Source of the DNA: Verrucomicrobiota bacterium
Lineage (GTDB): Bacteria > Verrucomicrobiota > Verrucomicrobiia > Limisphaerales > UBA9464
Assembly (NCBI GenBank): GCA_046090125.1
Contig: JBJSZF010000520.1
Span: 1 to 43,890 of the forward strand
Length of the DNA stretch: 43,890 nt
Direction: 5' to 3'
The stretch's first letter is position 1, and the number at the start of each line of letters is the position of its first letter. The notes below the pieces were generated by a model. That model did no database searches, was not told the DNA's origin, and saw only the letters and a list, made by a program, of their open reading frames with translations. Positions 22,006-29,103 of this stretch are shown piece after piece. Position numbers and translations under genes: made by a program.

Positions 22006-23826
22006 TTACCAGCGCCTGCGGTCGGCCAGGAACAGGTGGCCGCGCTCGGCCGAGCCTTGGTACGCGTCCAGCAAGGGGAATCCCCTCGGGAGGTTCCGGT
22101 TCACCACGGCATCGAGGTAAAACCGACCCCACACAAACTCGGCCGTGCCGACCCGCCGCAAGGGTTCCTCGCTGGTGAACGGCGACAGGTACATGGCCGC
22201 CACGTGGCGCTCGAAGTCGGTCACGGAAAGGAAGTCCTCGCCATCCACCTTGCCGTCCTTGTCCTTCATGCTCGCCACCTTGTGGGGCAGCCAGAGGCAT
22301 TCCCGGTCGCCGTACCAGGCCACCGCCCACGGGACGTCGCTGGCCATCAGCTCGTTGGGCCGAACGTATCCCGATACCTCCTGGATGATGTCCGGCCGGT
22401 ACGCGGGTAGCACCATGGGGAAGCTGGGGGGCGGCAGCAGCGACGTCAGCAACGGCAGGCTGAACACCAGCCATGCCCCGCCCGCGAACACCCCCCGAAG
22501 CAAGGGATGCCCAAACTCCGTCGATCCCAGCAGGCTGAAGAAGAAGCTCACGGCGAACAGGAACACCAACGGCGTCAACAACACCATCTGGCAGGACTCG
22601 TTCGCCTCCGGCACCAGCGTGCTCCAGTGCGTCCGCATCAGCGCCTCCACCACGAAGAAGATCCCAAGCGTTGCCAACGTGAACCATCGAAGCCGCCGCA
22701 GCCGTTCCGTCCGGAACGGCAACATCAACCCCGACACGAACAGGAAGAACGCCCAGTTGCCCGTCAGCTTCGGCACCGAGTTTCGCAGCAGGTCCGCCGC
22801 GTTCACCGAGAACTTCACCCGCACCTCCGTCAGGAGGTTGGGCGGCTCCGGAGGCTTGCGCAGGTGCCTTTCCAGCCACGACTCCGGGAAGCTCTCCGTC
22901 CCGGCCAACATCGCGCTTCCCGCCGTGCCCAGCAGCCGGCCGCTCACGAGGTAGTTGCGGGCAAGCCATGGCGACGCCACCACTGCAAACGCCAGCAGGC
23001 ACGCTGGCACCACCGCCCATCGACGCACGTGGGTCATCAGCATCCACGCAACGGCGGGGATGAGCACAAAGCCGAAGGCGTACCGTGTCAGGAACCCCAC
23101 CCCGATGACCACGCCCGCCGTGGCGGCCAATCGCAACGGGCGACCCAGCGGCGGCAGCAGCCCCGGCGCCAGCTCCGCCCCCGTCTCGTCCAGCCGCACC
23201 AACACGTCCGCCAACACCAGCACCAGGACCATGAGGAATGGCGCCGGCAGGCCGTTGCTCGACATCCGCCACAACAGCTCCGTCCCCGCGTACACCGCCG
23301 CCGACATGAGCCCCACTTCCCAGTCGAACCAGCGCCTTCCCAGCCGCCACACCAACCACGTGCCCAGTCCCAGCCAACCTAGGTTGAACAACGTGATGAA
23401 CGTCTCCGGCCATGGGCGCTGGCGAAACGGATCCTGCGTCAGGCTCGTCCACAGCCGCTCCGGCAGCACCTTGAACAATCCTGCCAACATCACGGGATAC
23501 ACCGGCGGGTTGTGAAGGTCCGGATGCGGCTTCTGCAAGAGCCCCGCCTGCGGTTGGCCCGTCTCCTTCGCCCGTTCCTGGAGCAGGTGAAAGCTCAGCG
23601 GCCGCACCAGCCGCGTCGTGTAGCCCCGCCCCGCCGCCAGGTTGCGCCCCAGTTGCCCCAGGTCCATCGCCTCCGGGTTCGAGAAGTTCTTCGCCTCCCG
23701 CATCAGGTAGATGCCCCCCACCGCCAAGACCGCCATGATGACCAGCCAACGCTGCATCCATCGACGCCCAGCCCCCATTTCCATCGCGTGGACCAAGTCC
23801 TGCGCGCCCCTCGGCCCTTGGTTCAT
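22006..23826 (-). CDS. Polytopic membrane protein, GT-C fold glycosyltransferase-like (ArnT/PMT family 39-like)
   Basis: ATG verified at 23826 (MNQGPRG...). More than 10 hydrophobic segments. The first loop motif EAMDLGQLGRNLAAGRGYTT and the overall layout resemble family-39/ArnT-type transferases. Soluble C-terminal domain of ~150 aa. The start overlaps the stop of the activator gene (ATGA). Confidence 0.7.
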   Translation of the reverse strand: MNQGPRGAQDLVHAMEMGAGRRWMQRWLVIMAVLAVGGIYLMREAKNFSNPEAMDLGQLGRNLAAGRGYTTRLVRPLSFHLLQERAKETGQPQAGLLQKPHPDLHNPPVYPVMLAGLFKVLPERLWTSLTQDPFRQRPWPETFITLFNLGWLGLGTWLVWRLGRRWFDWEVGLMSAAVYAGTELLWRMSSNGLPAPFLMVLVLVLADVLVRLDETGAELAPGLLPPLGRPLRLAATAGVVIGVGFLTRYAFGFVLIPAVAWMLMTHVRRWAVVPACLLAFAVVASPWLARNYLVSGRLLGTAGSAMLAGTESFPESWLERHLRKPPEPPNLLTEVRVKFSVNAADLLRNSVPKLTGNWAFFLFVSGLMLPFRTERLRRLRWFTLATLGIFFVVEALMRTHWSTLVPEANESCQMVLLTPLVFLFAVSFFFSLLGSTEFGHPLLRGVFAGGAWLVFSLPLLTSLLPPPSFPMVLPAYRPDIIQEVSGYVRPNELMASDVPWAVAWYGDRECLWLPHKVASMKDKDGKVDGEDFLSVTDFERHVAAMYLSPFTSEEPLRRVGTAEFVWGRFYLDAVVNRNLPRGFPLLDAYQGSAERGHLFLADRRRW

Positions 23827-25268
23827 TTCATGTCCTCCAACCCAAACTGATGAATCTTCCGGTGCAACGTTCGACGGCTGATCCCGAGCTTCTTCGCGGC
23901 CTCCGTCCGGTTGCCATCGCACGCCTCCAGCGCATGGATCACCAACTGCCGCTCCGCCTCCTTCCACGACAGCCCTCCTGCCGCGATCTTCTCCCGGGCC
24001 TCGTGGACCACGGCCTCCCCCGGGGCCGCACGCAGGGCCGTTGGAAGGTCCTTGACCCCAACCGTCTCGCCCCGGCACAGCACCACCGCGTGCTCCATCG
24101 CCGTCCGCAGCTCCCGCACGTTCCCCGGCCACCGATGCCGCAGCAGCGCCTCCATCGCCGCCGTCTCCAACCCCTTTACCTTCTTCCCGTTCTCACGCGC
24201 GTACTCCTGCACGAACGCCATCGCCAACGCCGGGATGTCCGACACCCGTTCGCGCAGGGGCGGCAGGTGGATCGGCACCACCGCCAGCCGGAAGTAGAGG
24301 TCCTCTCGGAACGTCCCCGCCTTCACCATCGCCGCGAGGTCCTTGTTCGTCGCCGCCACCAGCCGCACGTCCGCCGTCAAGGTCTTCCCCGACCCCAGCC
24401 GCTCAAACGTCCGCTCGCCCAGGAAGCGCAGGAGCTTCACCTGCGTCGTCGCGTCAATCTCCCCGATCTCGTCGAGGAACAACGTCCCGCCCTGCGCCAG
24501 CTCCACGCGTCCCGGGCGACGCTCATGCGCCCCGGTGAACGCGCCCTTTTCATGCCCAAACAACTCGCTCTCCAGCAACGCCGCCGGAAGCCCCGCGCAA
24601 TGCACCGCCACCCACGGTCCCCGCGACCGCGTGCTCAATTGGTGGATCGTCTTCGCCACCACCTCCTTGCCCGTCCCGCTTTCCCCCGTGATCAACACCG
24701 TTGTCCGCGTCGGTGCCACCTGACGGATTACCTCCATCACTTCGCCCAACGCCGGCGACGACCCCACCAGCCCCGGCATCCCGTACTTCTGGTCCAGCCG
24801 CTCGTGCAACTGCCGGTTCTCGGACTCCAGCCCCCGCCGCTTCAGCGCCCTCTGGATGCGCAGCTCCAGCTCCTCGAACTTCAGCCGCCCCTTTGCAATG
24901 TAGTCGTCCGCCCCGCGCTTCATCGCCTCCACCGCCACGTCCTCCGACCCGTAGGCCGTCATCAGGATGCAAACGGGCGGCTTCGGCAGCGCCCGCGCGC
25001 GGTCTATCAACTGGAACCCATCCTCTCCCGTCATCCGCAGGTCCGTCAGCATCACGTCGAAGGCCTCCTTTTCCATCAAGCCACGCGCGGCCTCCGCGGA
25101 TTCCGCCAAGTATACGTCAAAGCGGTCCTCCAACGCCGCGCGCAACCCCTCGCGCGTCGTCTTCTCGTCATCCACGATCAACAACGTCGGACTCACGCGT
25201 CGCAGCGTACCCCAACCCGCCCCCCGGTGGCGATGCCGAGTTCTCAAGCCCGGACGCACCCGTTGCAT
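23823..25268 (-). CDS. Sigma-54-dependent response regulator (NtrC family: REC - AAA+ - Fis HTH)
   Basis: Receiver domain LLIVDDEK...VMLTDLRM...LMTAYG...YIAKG. AAA+ domain VLITGESGTGKEVVA, ESELFGHEKGAFTGA (GAFTGA sigma-54 contact loop). C-terminal NRTEAAKKLGISRRTLHRKI. ATG at 25268; GTG at 25196 (VSPTLLIVDD) is an alternative start. Confidence 0.9.
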   Translation of the reverse strand: MQRVRPGLRTRHRHRGAGWGTLRRVSPTLLIVDDEKTTREGLRAALEDRFDVYLAESAEAARGLMEKEAFDVMLTDLRMTGEDGFQLIDRARALPKPPVCILMTAYGSEDVAVEAMKRGADDYIAKGRLKFEELELRIQRALKRRGLESENRQLHERLDQKYGMPGLVGSSPALGEVMEVIRQVAPTRTTVLITGESGTGKEVVAKTIHQLSTRSRGPWVAVHCAGLPAALLESELFGHEKGAFTGAHERRPGRVELAQGGTLFLDEIGEIDATTQVKLLRFLGERTFERLGSGKTLTADVRLVAATNKDLAAMVKAGTFREDLYFRLAVVPIHLPPLRERVSDIPALAMAFVQEYARENGKKVKGLETAAMEALLRHRWPGNVRELRTAMEHAVVLCRGETVGVKDLPTALRAAPGEAVVHEAREKIAAGGLSWKEAERQLVIHALEACDGNRTEAAKKLGISRRTLHRKIHQFGLEDMK

Positions 25269-25305
25269 CCCGATGGTGTCAGCCTAGAAACGGCAGTGGG
25301 TCCGT

Positions 25306-25382
25306 CTGTAGGCCGCGTGCCCTCACGCGGCGGCGGTGATGCCTCGTGCCCGGTGCGCCGGGTCAGGGGACCCGGCCTACAG
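25306..25382. promoter_or_regulatory. 77-nt inverted-repeat-closed three-helix element just upstream of the activator gene
   Basis: Perfect 10-bp inverted repeat ctgtaggccg (25306-25315) / cggcctacag (25373-25382). It encloses local hairpins gcgtg-ccct-cacgc (about 25315-25328) and cccgg-tgcg-ccggg (25349-25362). Function unknown. Confidence 0.4.
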
Positions 25383-25478
25383 CCGAACCGGGCCTGCCTC
25401 GACCTCACCCGCAGGGGGAGCCCCTGGGTTCCTGTCCATGAGCCCATCCGACCCGATGGGAAGGGCGTTTCCTCGTCT

Positions 25479-25493
25479 TGGCACCCTCTTTGA
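25479..25493 (+). promoter_or_regulatory. Near-consensus sigma-54 (-24/-12) promoter-like motif
   Basis: TGGCAC-cctct-TTGA versus consensus TGGCAC-N5-TTGC. The spacing is correct, but the conserved C of the -12 GC is an A. It points away from the activator gene towards repeat copy A. Confidence 0.25.
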
Positions 25494-25544
25494 CTGCCGA
25501 TTTCAGGGTCCGTGTTCCCAAGAACATCGTGGCTCGCTCAACCC

Positions 25545-25657
25545 CTGGAGCGCGGCCGTCCCCGGCCGCCTCTTTGTCCTCCCCCTTTCGGTGCCGGTTC
25601 GCTCCCCGCATCGCCCGCCCATGTCACCAACCCCTTCGGGATGCACGGTGATGCACC
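25545..25657. repeat. Structured intergenic repeat, copy A (candidate ncRNA / cis-regulatory element; minus strand favoured)
   Basis: Aligns with 28202-28307 in the same orientation. Exact blocks: cggccgtccccggccg, cgctccccgcatc, cccatgtcaccaacc, cttcgggatgcac. The hairpin pattern is conserved (see findings). Confidence 0.7.
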
Positions 25658-25921: not shown

Positions 25922-26692
25922 CTAGCGCACACGGATCATCAGCGCGTGCCCGTTCAGGTTGTGAATGACGTGTCGGTCATCGAGACGGCGATATTCCTCC
26001 ACGAGCTTCGCCACCCCGGTGCAGTAATGAAATCCATAGTCATCAAACACCACGACGCCCCCGGGGATCAGCCGCGGCCAAACCCAGTCCAGCACGCCTT
26101 TCGCGGAGTCGTACACGTCCACGTCGATGTGGCACAGGCTGAACTTCTGACCGGCGTGGATGAGGCCCCCGGTTTCGTCTGGGAAGATGCCCTTGAGCAC
26201 GCGGGTGGACGGATAGGCGCTCGTCCTTTTGATGAGCCCTTCCACCGTGTCCTGGCTCGTGTCGTGGTGTTCCCCACCGGTGTAGAAGGCGTCATTCGCC
26301 CCGGCTTTGGCCACGCCAGCGAACGTGTCGGCCAGGTAGAGGGTCGCCGGGCTTTTCAGATCCAAAAGTCGCCTCGCCATGACGGCGGCGGTTCCACCCC
26401 GCCAGACGCCCACTTCCAGGATGGCGGCTGCGGGGTCCAACTGCTGGACCTTTTCCACGAGCTGCCACAGCTCATGGCATCGATAGACATCCACCAAGGT
26501 GTGGCCCCGTATCTCACGGTGTATCGATTGAAAGGCCACGTCGCCCTCCCATGGGGCGTAGTTCGACTGGGGCAGGGTGAAGCCGTAGTGCAGGCCATCG
26601 ATGCTAAAGCTCGCCCTGCCGTTGTGCCGCGGCCGCTTGTAGAGGATGACGCCCGTGTGGTCGAAGAGGGTGCGGAGGATTCGCCGGATCAT
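25922..26692 (-). CDS. TylF/MycF-family (macrocin O-methyltransferase-like) class I SAM-dependent methyltransferase
   Basis: ORF track 256 aa, ATG verified. ILEVGVWRGGTAAVMA (SAM motif I)...YLADTFAG...CHIDVDVYDSAKGVLDWVWPRLIPGGVVVFDDYG is typical of the TylF family. Confidence 0.85.
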   Translation of the reverse strand: MIRRILRTLFDHTGVILYKRPRHNGRASFSIDGLHYGFTLPQSNYAPWEGDVAFQSIHREIRGHTLVDVYRCHELWQLVEKVQQLDPAAAILEVGVWRGGTAAVMARRLLDLKSPATLYLADTFAGVAKAGANDAFYTGGEHHDTSQDTVEGLIKRTSAYPSTRVLKGIFPDETGGLIHAGQKFSLCHIDVDVYDSAKGVLDWVWPRLIPGGVVVFDDYGFHYCTGVAKLVEEYRRLDDRHVIHNLNGHALMIRVR

Positions 26693-27000: not shown

Positions 27001-28083
27001 TCAGAGCCCGATGGCGGCCATGACGGCCTCGCGGGACGCGGCGCAGGTGAGGGGCTCGAAGCCAGCGACCTTGAGGGCCGTGTCGGGGTCCTTGAGGCCA
27101 TGGCCCGTCATGGTGGCGGTGACGAGGCTTCCCTCGGGGATTTCGTCGGCGGCTACGGCCTTGATGAGGCCGGCAATGGGCGCGGCGCACGCGGGCTCGA
27201 CCATCACGCCCTCGGTGCGTGCAAGGAGCTTGTAGGCATGGAGGATCTCGTCGTCGGTGACGGACCGGATGGATCCCTGCGAGTCGCGGGCGGCGTCGAT
27301 GGCCCCTTGCCACGAGGCGGGGTTCCCGATGCGGATGGCGGTGGCGACGGTCTCGGGGTGCTCGACGGGGTGGCCGAGGACGAGGGGGGCGGCCCCGGCG
27401 GCCTGCCAGCCCATCATGCGGGGGAGGGTGTCGGAGCGGCCGGCCTCGGCGTATTCCCGGAAGCCCTTCCAGTAGGCGGTGATGTTGCCGGCGTTGCCAA
27501 CGGGGAGGAAATGAAAGTCGGGCGCGTCGCCGAGCACGTCGCAGATCTCGAAGGCGGCGGTCTTCTGGCCCTCGATGCGGACGGGGTTGATGGAGTTGAC
27601 GACCTCGACGAGGCCGGTCTCGCCGAGCTCGCGCACGACGCGGAGGGCATCGTCGAAGTTGCCCTCGATGGAGACGGTGGTGGCTCCGTAGAGGAGGGCT
27701 TGGGCGAGCTTGCCGAGGGCGATCTTGCCCTTGGGGAGGAGCACGACGCACTTCATGCCGGCCCGCGCGGCATAGGCGGCGGCGGACGCGGAGGTGTTGC
27801 CGGTGGAGGCGCAGACGACGACCTGTGCCCCGCGTTCCTTGGCCTTGGTGATGGCCATCGTCATGCCGCGGTCCTTGAACGAGCAGGTGGGATTGAGGGC
27901 CTCGTACTTCAGGTAAAGGTCAAAGCGGCCACCGATGGCCTCGACCAGCGCGGGGGCAGGGATCAATGGCGTGTTGCCCTCCAGCAACGTCACGACCGGC
28001 GTCTCGGCGGTCACGGGCAGCAGGTCGGCGTAACGCCGGATCACGCCGGGCCACGGATAGGCGGGCTTCGGTGCCATGTTCAT
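27001..28083 (-). CDS. thrC: Threonine synthase
   Basis: ATG at 28083 (second ATG at 28077) gives [44 protein letters not shown]...[15 protein letters not shown] (PLP lysine motif)...[12 protein letters not shown]. The track ORF extends 233 codons upstream through non-coding DNA. Confidence 0.9.
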
Positions 28084-28104
28084 GTCATGTCGTGTCGTGT
28101 CGTG
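28080..28104. repeat. Pentanucleotide tandem tract (TCRTG)5 = minus-strand (CAYGA)5 overlapping the thrC start
   Basis: Plus strand tcatg tcatg tcgtg tcgtg tcgtg. Read directly from the sequence. Confidence 0.8.
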
Positions 28105-28201
28105 TGCTTCCCATGGACGCGCGCTCAGCCCCATTGGACGGCGGAGGCTGGAAAACCCGGGCGTGAACGACAAGCCATTTGATGGCGTGGATGGCCCGAC
28201 G

Positions 28202-28307
28202 CTGGGAGCACGGCCGTCCCCGGCCGACTCTCCACGCTCCCGCCTTGCGGGATCCGTCCGCTCCCCGCATCCCGTTCCCATGTCACCAACCACTTCGGGA
28301 TGCACCC
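28202..28307. repeat. Structured intergenic repeat, copy B (in the thrC / coaB-like divergent spacer)
   Basis: See copy A. Here the gcatcccg/cgggatgc stem is a perfect 8 bp (28267-28274 / 28296-28303). Confidence 0.7.
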
Positions 28308-28401
28308 GGGCTCGGGGCGCGTCCCTGGGCATGGGTTGGCGCGTGGTGCGGGGCGCGGCGGCGATTGTCGGGCGGGCGTTGCCAGGATAGCCTGCGCAGA
28401 C

Positions 28402-29103
28402 GTGAACCGACCGTCCCCACTCCGTTGCCTCATCAGTGCCGGGCCGACCTCCGAGCCGATCGACGCCGTGCGGCGGATGACGAACTTCTCGACGGGGTCG
28501 CTGGGCACCCTGCTGGCAAACGCGCTGTCGATGGCCGGGCATGAGGTGGTGTTGATGCGGTCGCGGGCCGCCGTCGCGCCGCCGCCGGTATTCGCGGTGG
28601 AGGTGCAGCCATTCTCGACCGCCGAGGAGCTTCGCGGCCTGTTCGAGCGACGGGCGACGACGGAGCCGGTGTGGGTGTTGCACGCGGCCGCCGTGGGAGA
28701 CTTCCGGTGCGACGGCATTCATGCACGCGAGGCGGACGGGACGTTTCGGGCCGTGGTGGAGCCAAAGGTCTCGACGGGGCACGGCGAGCTTTGGATGCGG
28801 CTAAGCCCGACGCCGAAGGTGCTCTCGTTGATGCGGGGTTGGTTTCCGAACGGGCGCCTGGTGGGGTGGAAGTACGAGGCGAACGGGTCCCGAGCGGATG
28901 CGTTGGCGCGGGGCAGGGACCAACTGGTGTCCAACCGCACCGATGCGTGCGTGGTCAACGGTCCGGCGCACGGCCCGGGCTACACGGTCCTGCGGCCGGG
29001 CGAGGGGGACGCGTTGGTGCCCGACGCGTCGGCGTTGGCGGGGTGGCTGGCGGATTGGATGGCGAGGGACGGGCGGTCGGCGGCGGGAAATTCCCCATCT
29101 TAG
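28402..29103 (+). CDS. coaB: Stand-alone phosphopantothenate-cysteine ligase (CoaB / DFP C-terminal domain)-like protein
   Basis: GTG at 28402 gives [35 protein letters not shown]...HAAAVGDF...LVGWKYE...ACVVNG. This is collinear with the CoaB half of CoaBC (ITAGPTREPIDPVR-x-ISN-x-SSG...AAVADY...VGFAAE). No CoaC (flavoprotein decarboxylase) half is present. The track ATG at 28300 would run through repeat copy B. Confidence 0.75.

Follow-up and report, generated by a model that had tools for sequence, protein, structure and literature searches.

Genes and Repeated Stretches at the Locus

The window, that is, the whole stretch of 43,890 nucleotides of verrucomicrobial DNA analyzed here, carries on its minus strand genes for an NtrC-type sigma-54 response regulator, a TylF-like methyltransferase and a PLP-dependent threonine synthase (thrC), followed on the plus strand by a DFP/CoaB-like gene (Table 1). 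Two similar stretches, referred to as copy A and copy B, lie among these genes. Alignment with MAFFT of positions 25528–25650 (copy A) and 28186–28305 (copy B) gives about 82% identity, with both copies oriented alike and one 1-nt indel between them, which bears out the original prediction of two co-oriented copies at these places and reproduces the four exact blocks that it had listed (CGGCCGTCCCCGGCCG, CGCTCCCCGCATC, CCCATGTCACCAACC and CTTCGGGATGCAC). A repeat search finds the same pair, as 66 nt at 82% and 61 nt at 74% identity. The starts had been set at 25545 and 28202; the copies stand and these starts do not, as the similarity begins at 25528 and 28186. In the case of copy A, the stretch first described makes up no more than the larger part of an element spanning 25261–25648. 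The earlier distances of the copies from thrC and the sigma-54 regulator gene are confirmed. No third copy is found within the window, either by pattern or by a covariance model. The family had been described as unrecognized, and this agrees with Rfam 15, which has no match at the gathering score for the window or at E ≤ 10 for the element.

Table 1. Predicted features of the window, with the target-site duplications of five further copies (L numbers denote contigs; fractions are matching positions).
Feature	Position	Strand	Remarks
NtrC-type sigma-54 response regulator gene	23823–25268	minus	
Copy A, left target-site duplication GGACGCACC	25252–25260		7/9 with 25649–25657; register fixed on five other copies
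Copy A, detached end with one terminal inverted repeat CGTTGCATCCCGATGGTGTCAG	25261–25282		Aligns with the end of the full-length copies
Nested insertion	25283–25507		15-nt inverted ends CCTAGAAACGGCAGT / ACTGCCGATTTCAGG; unrelated second repeat
Copy A, main body	25508–25648		Covariance-model match 25495–25649, 135 bits, E = 4e-28
Copy A, right target-site duplication TGATGCACC	25649–25657		7/9 with GGACGCACC
TylF-like methyltransferase gene	25922–26692	minus	
PLP-dependent threonine synthase gene (thrC)	27001–28083	minus	
Native thrC upstream region, outside the element	28085–28176	minus	Aligns with the thrC upstream region of L030
Copy B, truncated	28186–28307		Keeps terminal repeat 28284–28307; covariance-model match 28150–28308, 147 bits
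DFP/CoaB-like gene	28300–29103 (ORF)	plus	Start probably GTG at 28402
L027 target-site duplication			CAGGAGTCC / CAGGCGTCC, 8/9
L006 target-site duplication			CCCGATGGA / CCCAATGGA, 8/9
L012 target-site duplication			CGCGCCCAC / CGTGCCCCC, 7/9
L108 target-site duplication			TGAAGTTCC / CGACGTTCC, 7/9
L001 target-site duplication			CGGTGGCAC / AAGGGGCGC, 5/9

Further Copies and Their Distribution

Exact-pattern scans covered 185,579 species genomes, JGI metagenomes and viral contigs. True matches occur in one species genome only, the MAG CAYSGH01, on four contigs (L001, L002, L006 and L012); its record is labeled 'uncultured Akkermansia sp.', and G+C content over the element loci is 62–69%. The 13 other genome matches and three JGI metagenome matches are due to chance, with no similarity outside the pattern, and the viral, plasmid and phage collections contain no match to the element. 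Every DNA scan required CCCATGTCACC exactly, so that the copy numbers are lower bounds and the invariance of CCCATGTCACC is partly an ascertainment artefact.

Because the element lies in high-G+C DNA with spurious ORF calls, its translations were also searched for in a large protein collection, and five extra copies were recovered: L027 and L108, on two contigs of ENA assembly ERZ4209337; L109 (ENA ERZ4205204); L110 (ENA ERZ27232222); and P0002, a JGI sequence known as a protein alone. In this search, a six-frame concatenated query was swamped by low-complexity candidates and gave two matches, a single-frame profile added two, and a two-frame profile added one. Nine further copies are thus known: four in the MAG, four on ENA metagenome contigs and one in protein form only. 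A covariance model built from seven copies scores every DNA copy at 76–180 bits and nothing else above 20 bits in 242 kb of related loci. Several copies are present per genome or assembly, at unrelated loci (four contigs in CAYSGH01, two copies in the window and two contigs in ERZ4209337).

Judged by its ThrC, the organism of the window belongs among uncultured Verrucomicrobia. The best matches of this ThrC are UBA6176 and Ja1_bin-3224, at 88% amino-acid identity, and the next best are mislabeled 'Akkermansia' MAGs, followed by Pedosphaera and Limisphaerales MAGs. The Akkermansia labels (L001, L002, L006, L012, L029 and L031, including one 'Akkermansia muciniphila') look wrong, as the loci concerned have 62–69% G+C or a ThrC nearest to that of soil/freshwater Verrucomicrobia MAGs.

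Structure of the Element and Its Target-Site Duplications

An intact element is 160 bp in length (e.g., L027 745–904) and has no conserved reading frame. In L001, L006, L012, L027 and L108, similarity runs about 45 bp past the block originally described, and this additional arm terminates in CTTCGGGATGCACCG, the reverse complement of the opposite end. The element is thus bounded by 24-bp terminal inverted repeats, CGGTGCATCCCGAAGTTGTCGGTG ... CACCGACAACTTCGGGATGCACCG. The terminal inverted repeats of L027 are 24 nt and 96% complementary (CGGTGCATCCCGAAGTTGTCGGTG / CACCGACAACTTCGCGATGCACCG), and those of L001 are 22 nt and 82% complementary. Among the 110 loci fetched, the end motif is found in known copies only. 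The helices drawn in the original prediction are real inverted repeats: in an alignment of nine copies, 93% of their cells pair, compared with 37–51% when the partner is slid. In helix P1, one terminal repeat pairs with a third copy of its GCATCCCG core that lies inside the element, and P3 and P4 are internal palindromes.

Directly outside both ends are 9-bp direct repeats, in one fixed register and with a different sequence at each locus, which is the behavior expected of duplicated targets (Table 1). In five copies, these repeats match at 35/45 positions (binomial P = 4.6e-10 against non-cognate flanks); in the controls, comparing the left flank of one copy with the right flank of another gives 2.9/9 matching positions on average, and off-register comparisons give about 13/45. 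In addition, the left flank of L002/L109, at the site equivalent to that of L108, is exactly CGACGTTCC. Bacterial MITEs are 70–300 bp long, have terminal inverted repeats of 15–30 bp and lack coding capacity (PMC3733652). The element was checked for these traits and agrees with MITEs in its length, its non-coding nature, its terminal repeats of the 15–30-bp type, its target duplication and its dispersed copies.

Copy A and Its Nested Insertion

Copy A is a whole element that is split by a 225-bp nested repeat (Table 1). The segment 25261–25275 matches the terminal-repeat consensus with two mismatches and in the correct orientation, about 235 bp too distant, and the fragment 25261–25282 pairs with 25630–25645, so that the outer ends of copy A form a 16-nt inverted repeat with 88% complementarity. 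Excision of 25283–25507 restores a colinear alignment with the full-length copies, and the junctions of the nested insertion read GTCAG and GTCCG where intact copies show a single GTCGG. The split-element model of copy A predicted both an outer end and a 9-bp duplication, and both were subsequently found.

The nested insertion encloses a doublet of GTAG-tagged palindromes (25299–25389; palindromes at 25306–25382), which are the only GTAG-tagged palindromes in the window. The palindrome GTAGGCCGCGTG-CCCT-CACGCGGC and its inverted partner GTAGGCCGGGTC-CCCT-GACCCGGC resemble a REPIN doublet. This second repeat family is also seen at L006 4846–4947, L001 6453–6528, L108 564–620 and L030 2375–2442, and in these four contigs the left 100 nt alone of the nested repeat recur.

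The terminal inverted repeat of copy A contains the first ATG of the sigma-54 regulator ORF (25266–25268, minus strand); in the encoded protein, the receiver domain does not begin before residue 30. Translation probably starts further downstream, unless the insertion has supplied a new start. Five Logan contigs that carry the methyltransferase gene (L022–L026, from five sequencing runs) stop at one base, at about 25480, exactly 442 nt past the methyltransferase stop codon and within the right end of the nested repeat. This end point is an assembly-graph branch inside the repeat end.

Copy B and the thrC Upstream Region

Copy B lacks about 45 bp, including one end, and its similarity to the full-length copies stops at CCACG, at about 28186. 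The relative L030 has no element, and its similarity to the window upstream of thrC breaks off no more than about 10 nt from the element edge. Because the sequence from 28176 to thrC aligns with that of element-free L030, copy B is regarded as a one-ended relic that abuts the native thrC upstream region. The twelve nearest thrC loci covered by the search (L028–L039), which are not syntenic there, have no element in front of the gene, and a role as a thrC leader, considered as a candidate, was rejected on account of these element-free loci.

The native upstream region itself includes a segment, 28120–28176, that resembles L030 5917–5975 and contains the conserved block GGCTTGTC.TTC.C.C..GGGTTTTCCAGCCT; the ThrC of L030 is 88% identical, and the remaining intergenic region is not conserved. 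This block may be the native thrC promoter or leader. At 28078–28110, a pentanucleotide tract overlaps the thrC start (on the minus strand, CACGA CACGA CACGA CATGA CATGA ACATG) and is possibly prone to slippage at the start codon.

The two copies had also been said to bracket, as direct repeats, the pair of thrC and the methyltransferase gene. Bracketing of the pair as a unit has no support, as copy A is flanked by a duplication of its own and copy B is what remains of a truncated element. A composite transposon around the two genes was considered and rejected as well, given that each copy has its own ends and that relatives show no synteny.

Decay, Probable Conversion and Interruption of Copies

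L002 783–937 and L109 4354–4513 represent the same locus in two samples and are 99.3% identical across 4.7 kb. Inside the element, a patch of about 70 nt contains many differences between the two, and in this patch L109 resembles L108; the pattern suggests gene conversion between repeat copies. Both are truncated exactly where the internal CACGACGT meets the CGACGTTCC target repeat of L108, and L108 is full-length at the equivalent site. A microhomology deletion fits this truncation.

In L110 (105–813), a diverged copy is interrupted right after the P4 hairpin and GCTCC by a sequence that starts with GTGCG. The interruption has colinear sub-threshold matches to the Rfam models of group II intron domains D1–D4, its coding part matches the N-terminal portion of group II reverse transcriptase/maturase proteins (TIGR04416, E = 5.7e-4), and it is probably a group II intron. 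Class C introns home to terminator-like stem-loops, and we take the placement of the L110 intron to recall that of this class.

Three of the four copies of MAG CAYSGH01 lie near contig ends. Short-read assemblies of this lineage will systematically break at these repeats.

A Non-Autonomous Transposable Element as the Best Explanation

Both stretches very probably derive from a MITE, a non-autonomous transposable element, of which they are resident and partly decayed copies. This assignment is made because the element is about 160 bp long and non-coding and combines terminal inverted repeats with locus-specific duplications, the signature of cut-and-paste or copy-and-paste transposition. The anatomy, the duplications, the dispersal to unrelated loci, the nesting and the truncation are seen in the copies themselves, and we infer mobilization in trans by a putative DDE-type transposase. 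The original prediction had named a MITE- or REP-like selfish repeat as the outcome that would speak against its own reading, and the terminal inverted repeats and 9-bp duplications point to that outcome. Counted against a MITE are the small known copy number, which is a lower bound, the 5/9 duplication of L001, and the compensatory change and shared gene direction described below. In addition, the fetched loci yielded no autonomous insertion sequence or transposase with matching ends, and no true empty site was seen, the closest relatives not being syntenic around thrC.

In the proposed mechanism, a putative transposase encoded elsewhere in the genome would bind both ends of the element and excise or copy it. 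Insertion would take place via a 9-bp staggered cut, the repair of which would leave a 9-bp direct repeat on each side. After insertion, the copies would be subject to mutational decay, to gene-conversion patching from one another and to hits by other mobile DNA; copy A is a complete insertion into which a second small repeat later inserted, and copy B is a one-ended relic beside the thrC promoter region. A 9-bp duplication fits several DDE insertion-sequence families (IS1, IS4, the IS903 group of IS5, and IS256).

Alternative Readings of the Element

In the original prediction, the stretches were a minus-strand cis-regulatory or small RNA whose hairpins and GGUGACAUGGG loop are functional and control the downstream gene. 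Such an RNA is now highly improbable, given that covariation does not exceed controls, folding is symmetric, loops are variable and neighbors are unrelated. The helices are paired in 93% of cells in the nine-copy alignment, as noted above, but among 500 shuffles the observed values are reached by 46 for cells paired, 102 for the covariation score (0.078) and 346 for both-side changes. Against one compensatory event, a change in P4 from C-G to A-U in L108 and L109 with C.U in L027 as the intermediate, the stems show seven G.U, four A.C and 13 other mismatches. On the minus strand, the segments first described have folding z-scores of only −1.2 and −1.5, and for copy B it is the plus strand that gives the more stable fold (z = −3.0). 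The full element folds through its terminal repeats into a hairpin on both strands alike (z = −6.1 and −5.9), and P1 is absent from this structure. With regard to the loops, GNRA tetraloops are not conserved: the GAAA of the central hairpin occurs in copy A only, the other copies having AAG, UAG, ACG, AGG or AAU triloops, and the GGGA loop is UGGA in two copies. The invariance of GGTGACATGGG is discounted as a sign of function because this motif was a required part of the DNA patterns and overlaps with the terminal repeat, and because a variant occurs in P0002.

The genomic context of the copies bears on the same question. A gene start is located downstream on the minus-form strand at every locus that can be judged, and the probable group II intron of L110 lies in the same sense just after hairpin P4. 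However, the downstream genes have no common function, the neighbors of the element being a sigma-54 regulator, thrC, an SDF-family (dicarboxylate-family) symporter, an XRE regulator beside GmrSD, macA–macB, a DEAD/MZB helicase and an ECF sigma factor. In the case of copy B and L001, the genes on the two sides diverge and either orientation fits, and the informative tandem contexts are three (copy A, L002/L109 and L027), all of which are co-directional (one-sided P = 0.125); L006, L012, L110 and P0002 can be judged on one side only, and discovery via ORF calls biases this orientation count. An initial count, in which seven out of seven cases lay upstream of a co-directional gene, came down to these three contexts, and the strand bias is not significant. 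The element is absent at the closest thrC loci searched, Rfam gives no match even at E ≤ 10, and terminal repeats and target duplications are foreign to an RNA gene. A promoter scan found no sigma-70-like promoter in or beside the element, and a terminator-like call was obtained on the plus strand of copy A only, where a T-rich tail follows P4. Candidate ECF-type and sigma-54-type promoters noted by eye (GGGAAC..., GGCAC...) were rejected, as the spacing and the second element vary among copies.

More improbable still is a REP/REPIN-type repeat that a RAYT tyrosine transposase mobilizes, with single-stranded hairpins as intermediates. GTAG-tagged REP doublets abound in Verrucomicrobia such as Opitutus terrae (PMC3733652). 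The present genome also carries such doublets, one of them nested in copy A, so that the element and REP/REPIN sequences coexist in it, and both are short, GC-rich, palindromic, intergenic and repeated. However, the ends of the element, which read CGGTGCATCC..., have no GTAG or CGTC tag, and at 160 bp with long terminal repeats of 24 bp it is 4–5 times longer than a REP, which is a palindrome of 20–40 bp. It is also flanked by 9-bp duplications, whereas HUH/IS200-type transposition is not known to yield such duplications. As for a small protein-coding gene or domain, the frame concerned is open in 7/9 copies, and gene callers predicted proteins P0001–P0004 that contain it, but the probability of this reading is negligible. 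This sole open frame is shifted by 1-nt indels in copies A and L012, in accordance with the earlier statement that conservation is at the nucleotide level and not at the protein level, and most of the differences between copies alter an amino acid. At a G+C content of 68%, chance alone is expected to leave frames open, and each of the six is close to being so. No Pfam domain is present in P0001, P0003 or P0004, and the sole domain of P0002 is that of the downstream sigma factor.

Relation to Known Repeat and RNA Families

In its size and non-coding nature, the element is like the MITEs Correia/NEMIS (Neisseria), RUP (Streptococcus pneumoniae), ERIC/IRU (enterobacteria) and Nezha (cyanobacteria). 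It shares with MITEs the terminal inverted repeats, the target duplication, the intergenic, dispersed and multi-copy occurrence and the ability to form a hairpin on either strand, as well as the presence of truncated and nested copies. It has no sequence similarity to Correia/NEMIS, RUP, ERIC/IRU or Nezha, and it differs from these MITEs in having an internal third copy of the end motif and two GC-rich internal hairpins. Correia and RUP elements duplicate TA, in contrast to the 9 bp duplicated here. Also in contrast to the named MITEs, the element is so far seen in one uncultured verrucomicrobial lineage, with a low observed copy number. Its likeness to the orphan riboswitch-like or leader RNA motifs of PVC bacteria consists in a multi-hairpin block, a 5′ intergenic position and a GNRA-like loop in some copies. 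Unlike those motifs, it has no covariation, no constant gene partner, near-uniform nucleotide conservation outside the stems as well, and transposon ends with duplications. The element is a new family of an ordinary kind, a bacterial MITE, and not a new regulatory RNA.

Implications for Verrucomicrobial Genomes

The compensatory change in P4 and the co-directional orientation in the three tandem contexts leave room for a secondary function. Some copies may have such a function for the host, although nothing yet supports it statistically. It is unlikely that resident copies have in some cases been co-opted by the host as a mobile regulatory cassette that rewires expression in the lineage. One possible route to co-option is that the element supplies the 5′ leader or the start codon of the adjoining gene; the predicted ATG of the sigma-54 regulator falls within the terminal repeat of copy A, and in P0002, the open frame continues from the element into an ECF sigma factor. 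Another possible route is the use of the GC-rich P4 hairpin as a terminator-like stem-loop, which would fit both the L110 intron just 3′ of P4 and the compensatory change that preserves P4.

Although no new mechanism is opened by the element, it matters for annotation: it accounts for two conserved non-coding blocks that might otherwise have been annotated as a candidate riboswitch and for the breaks of short-read assemblies of this lineage at this place, and it casts doubt on the start codon predicted for the sigma-54 regulator. For the poorly studied uncultured Verrucomicrobia, a MITE family with nested insertions and apparent gene conversion is added, and the element may be of use in strain typing and in tracing its partner transposase.
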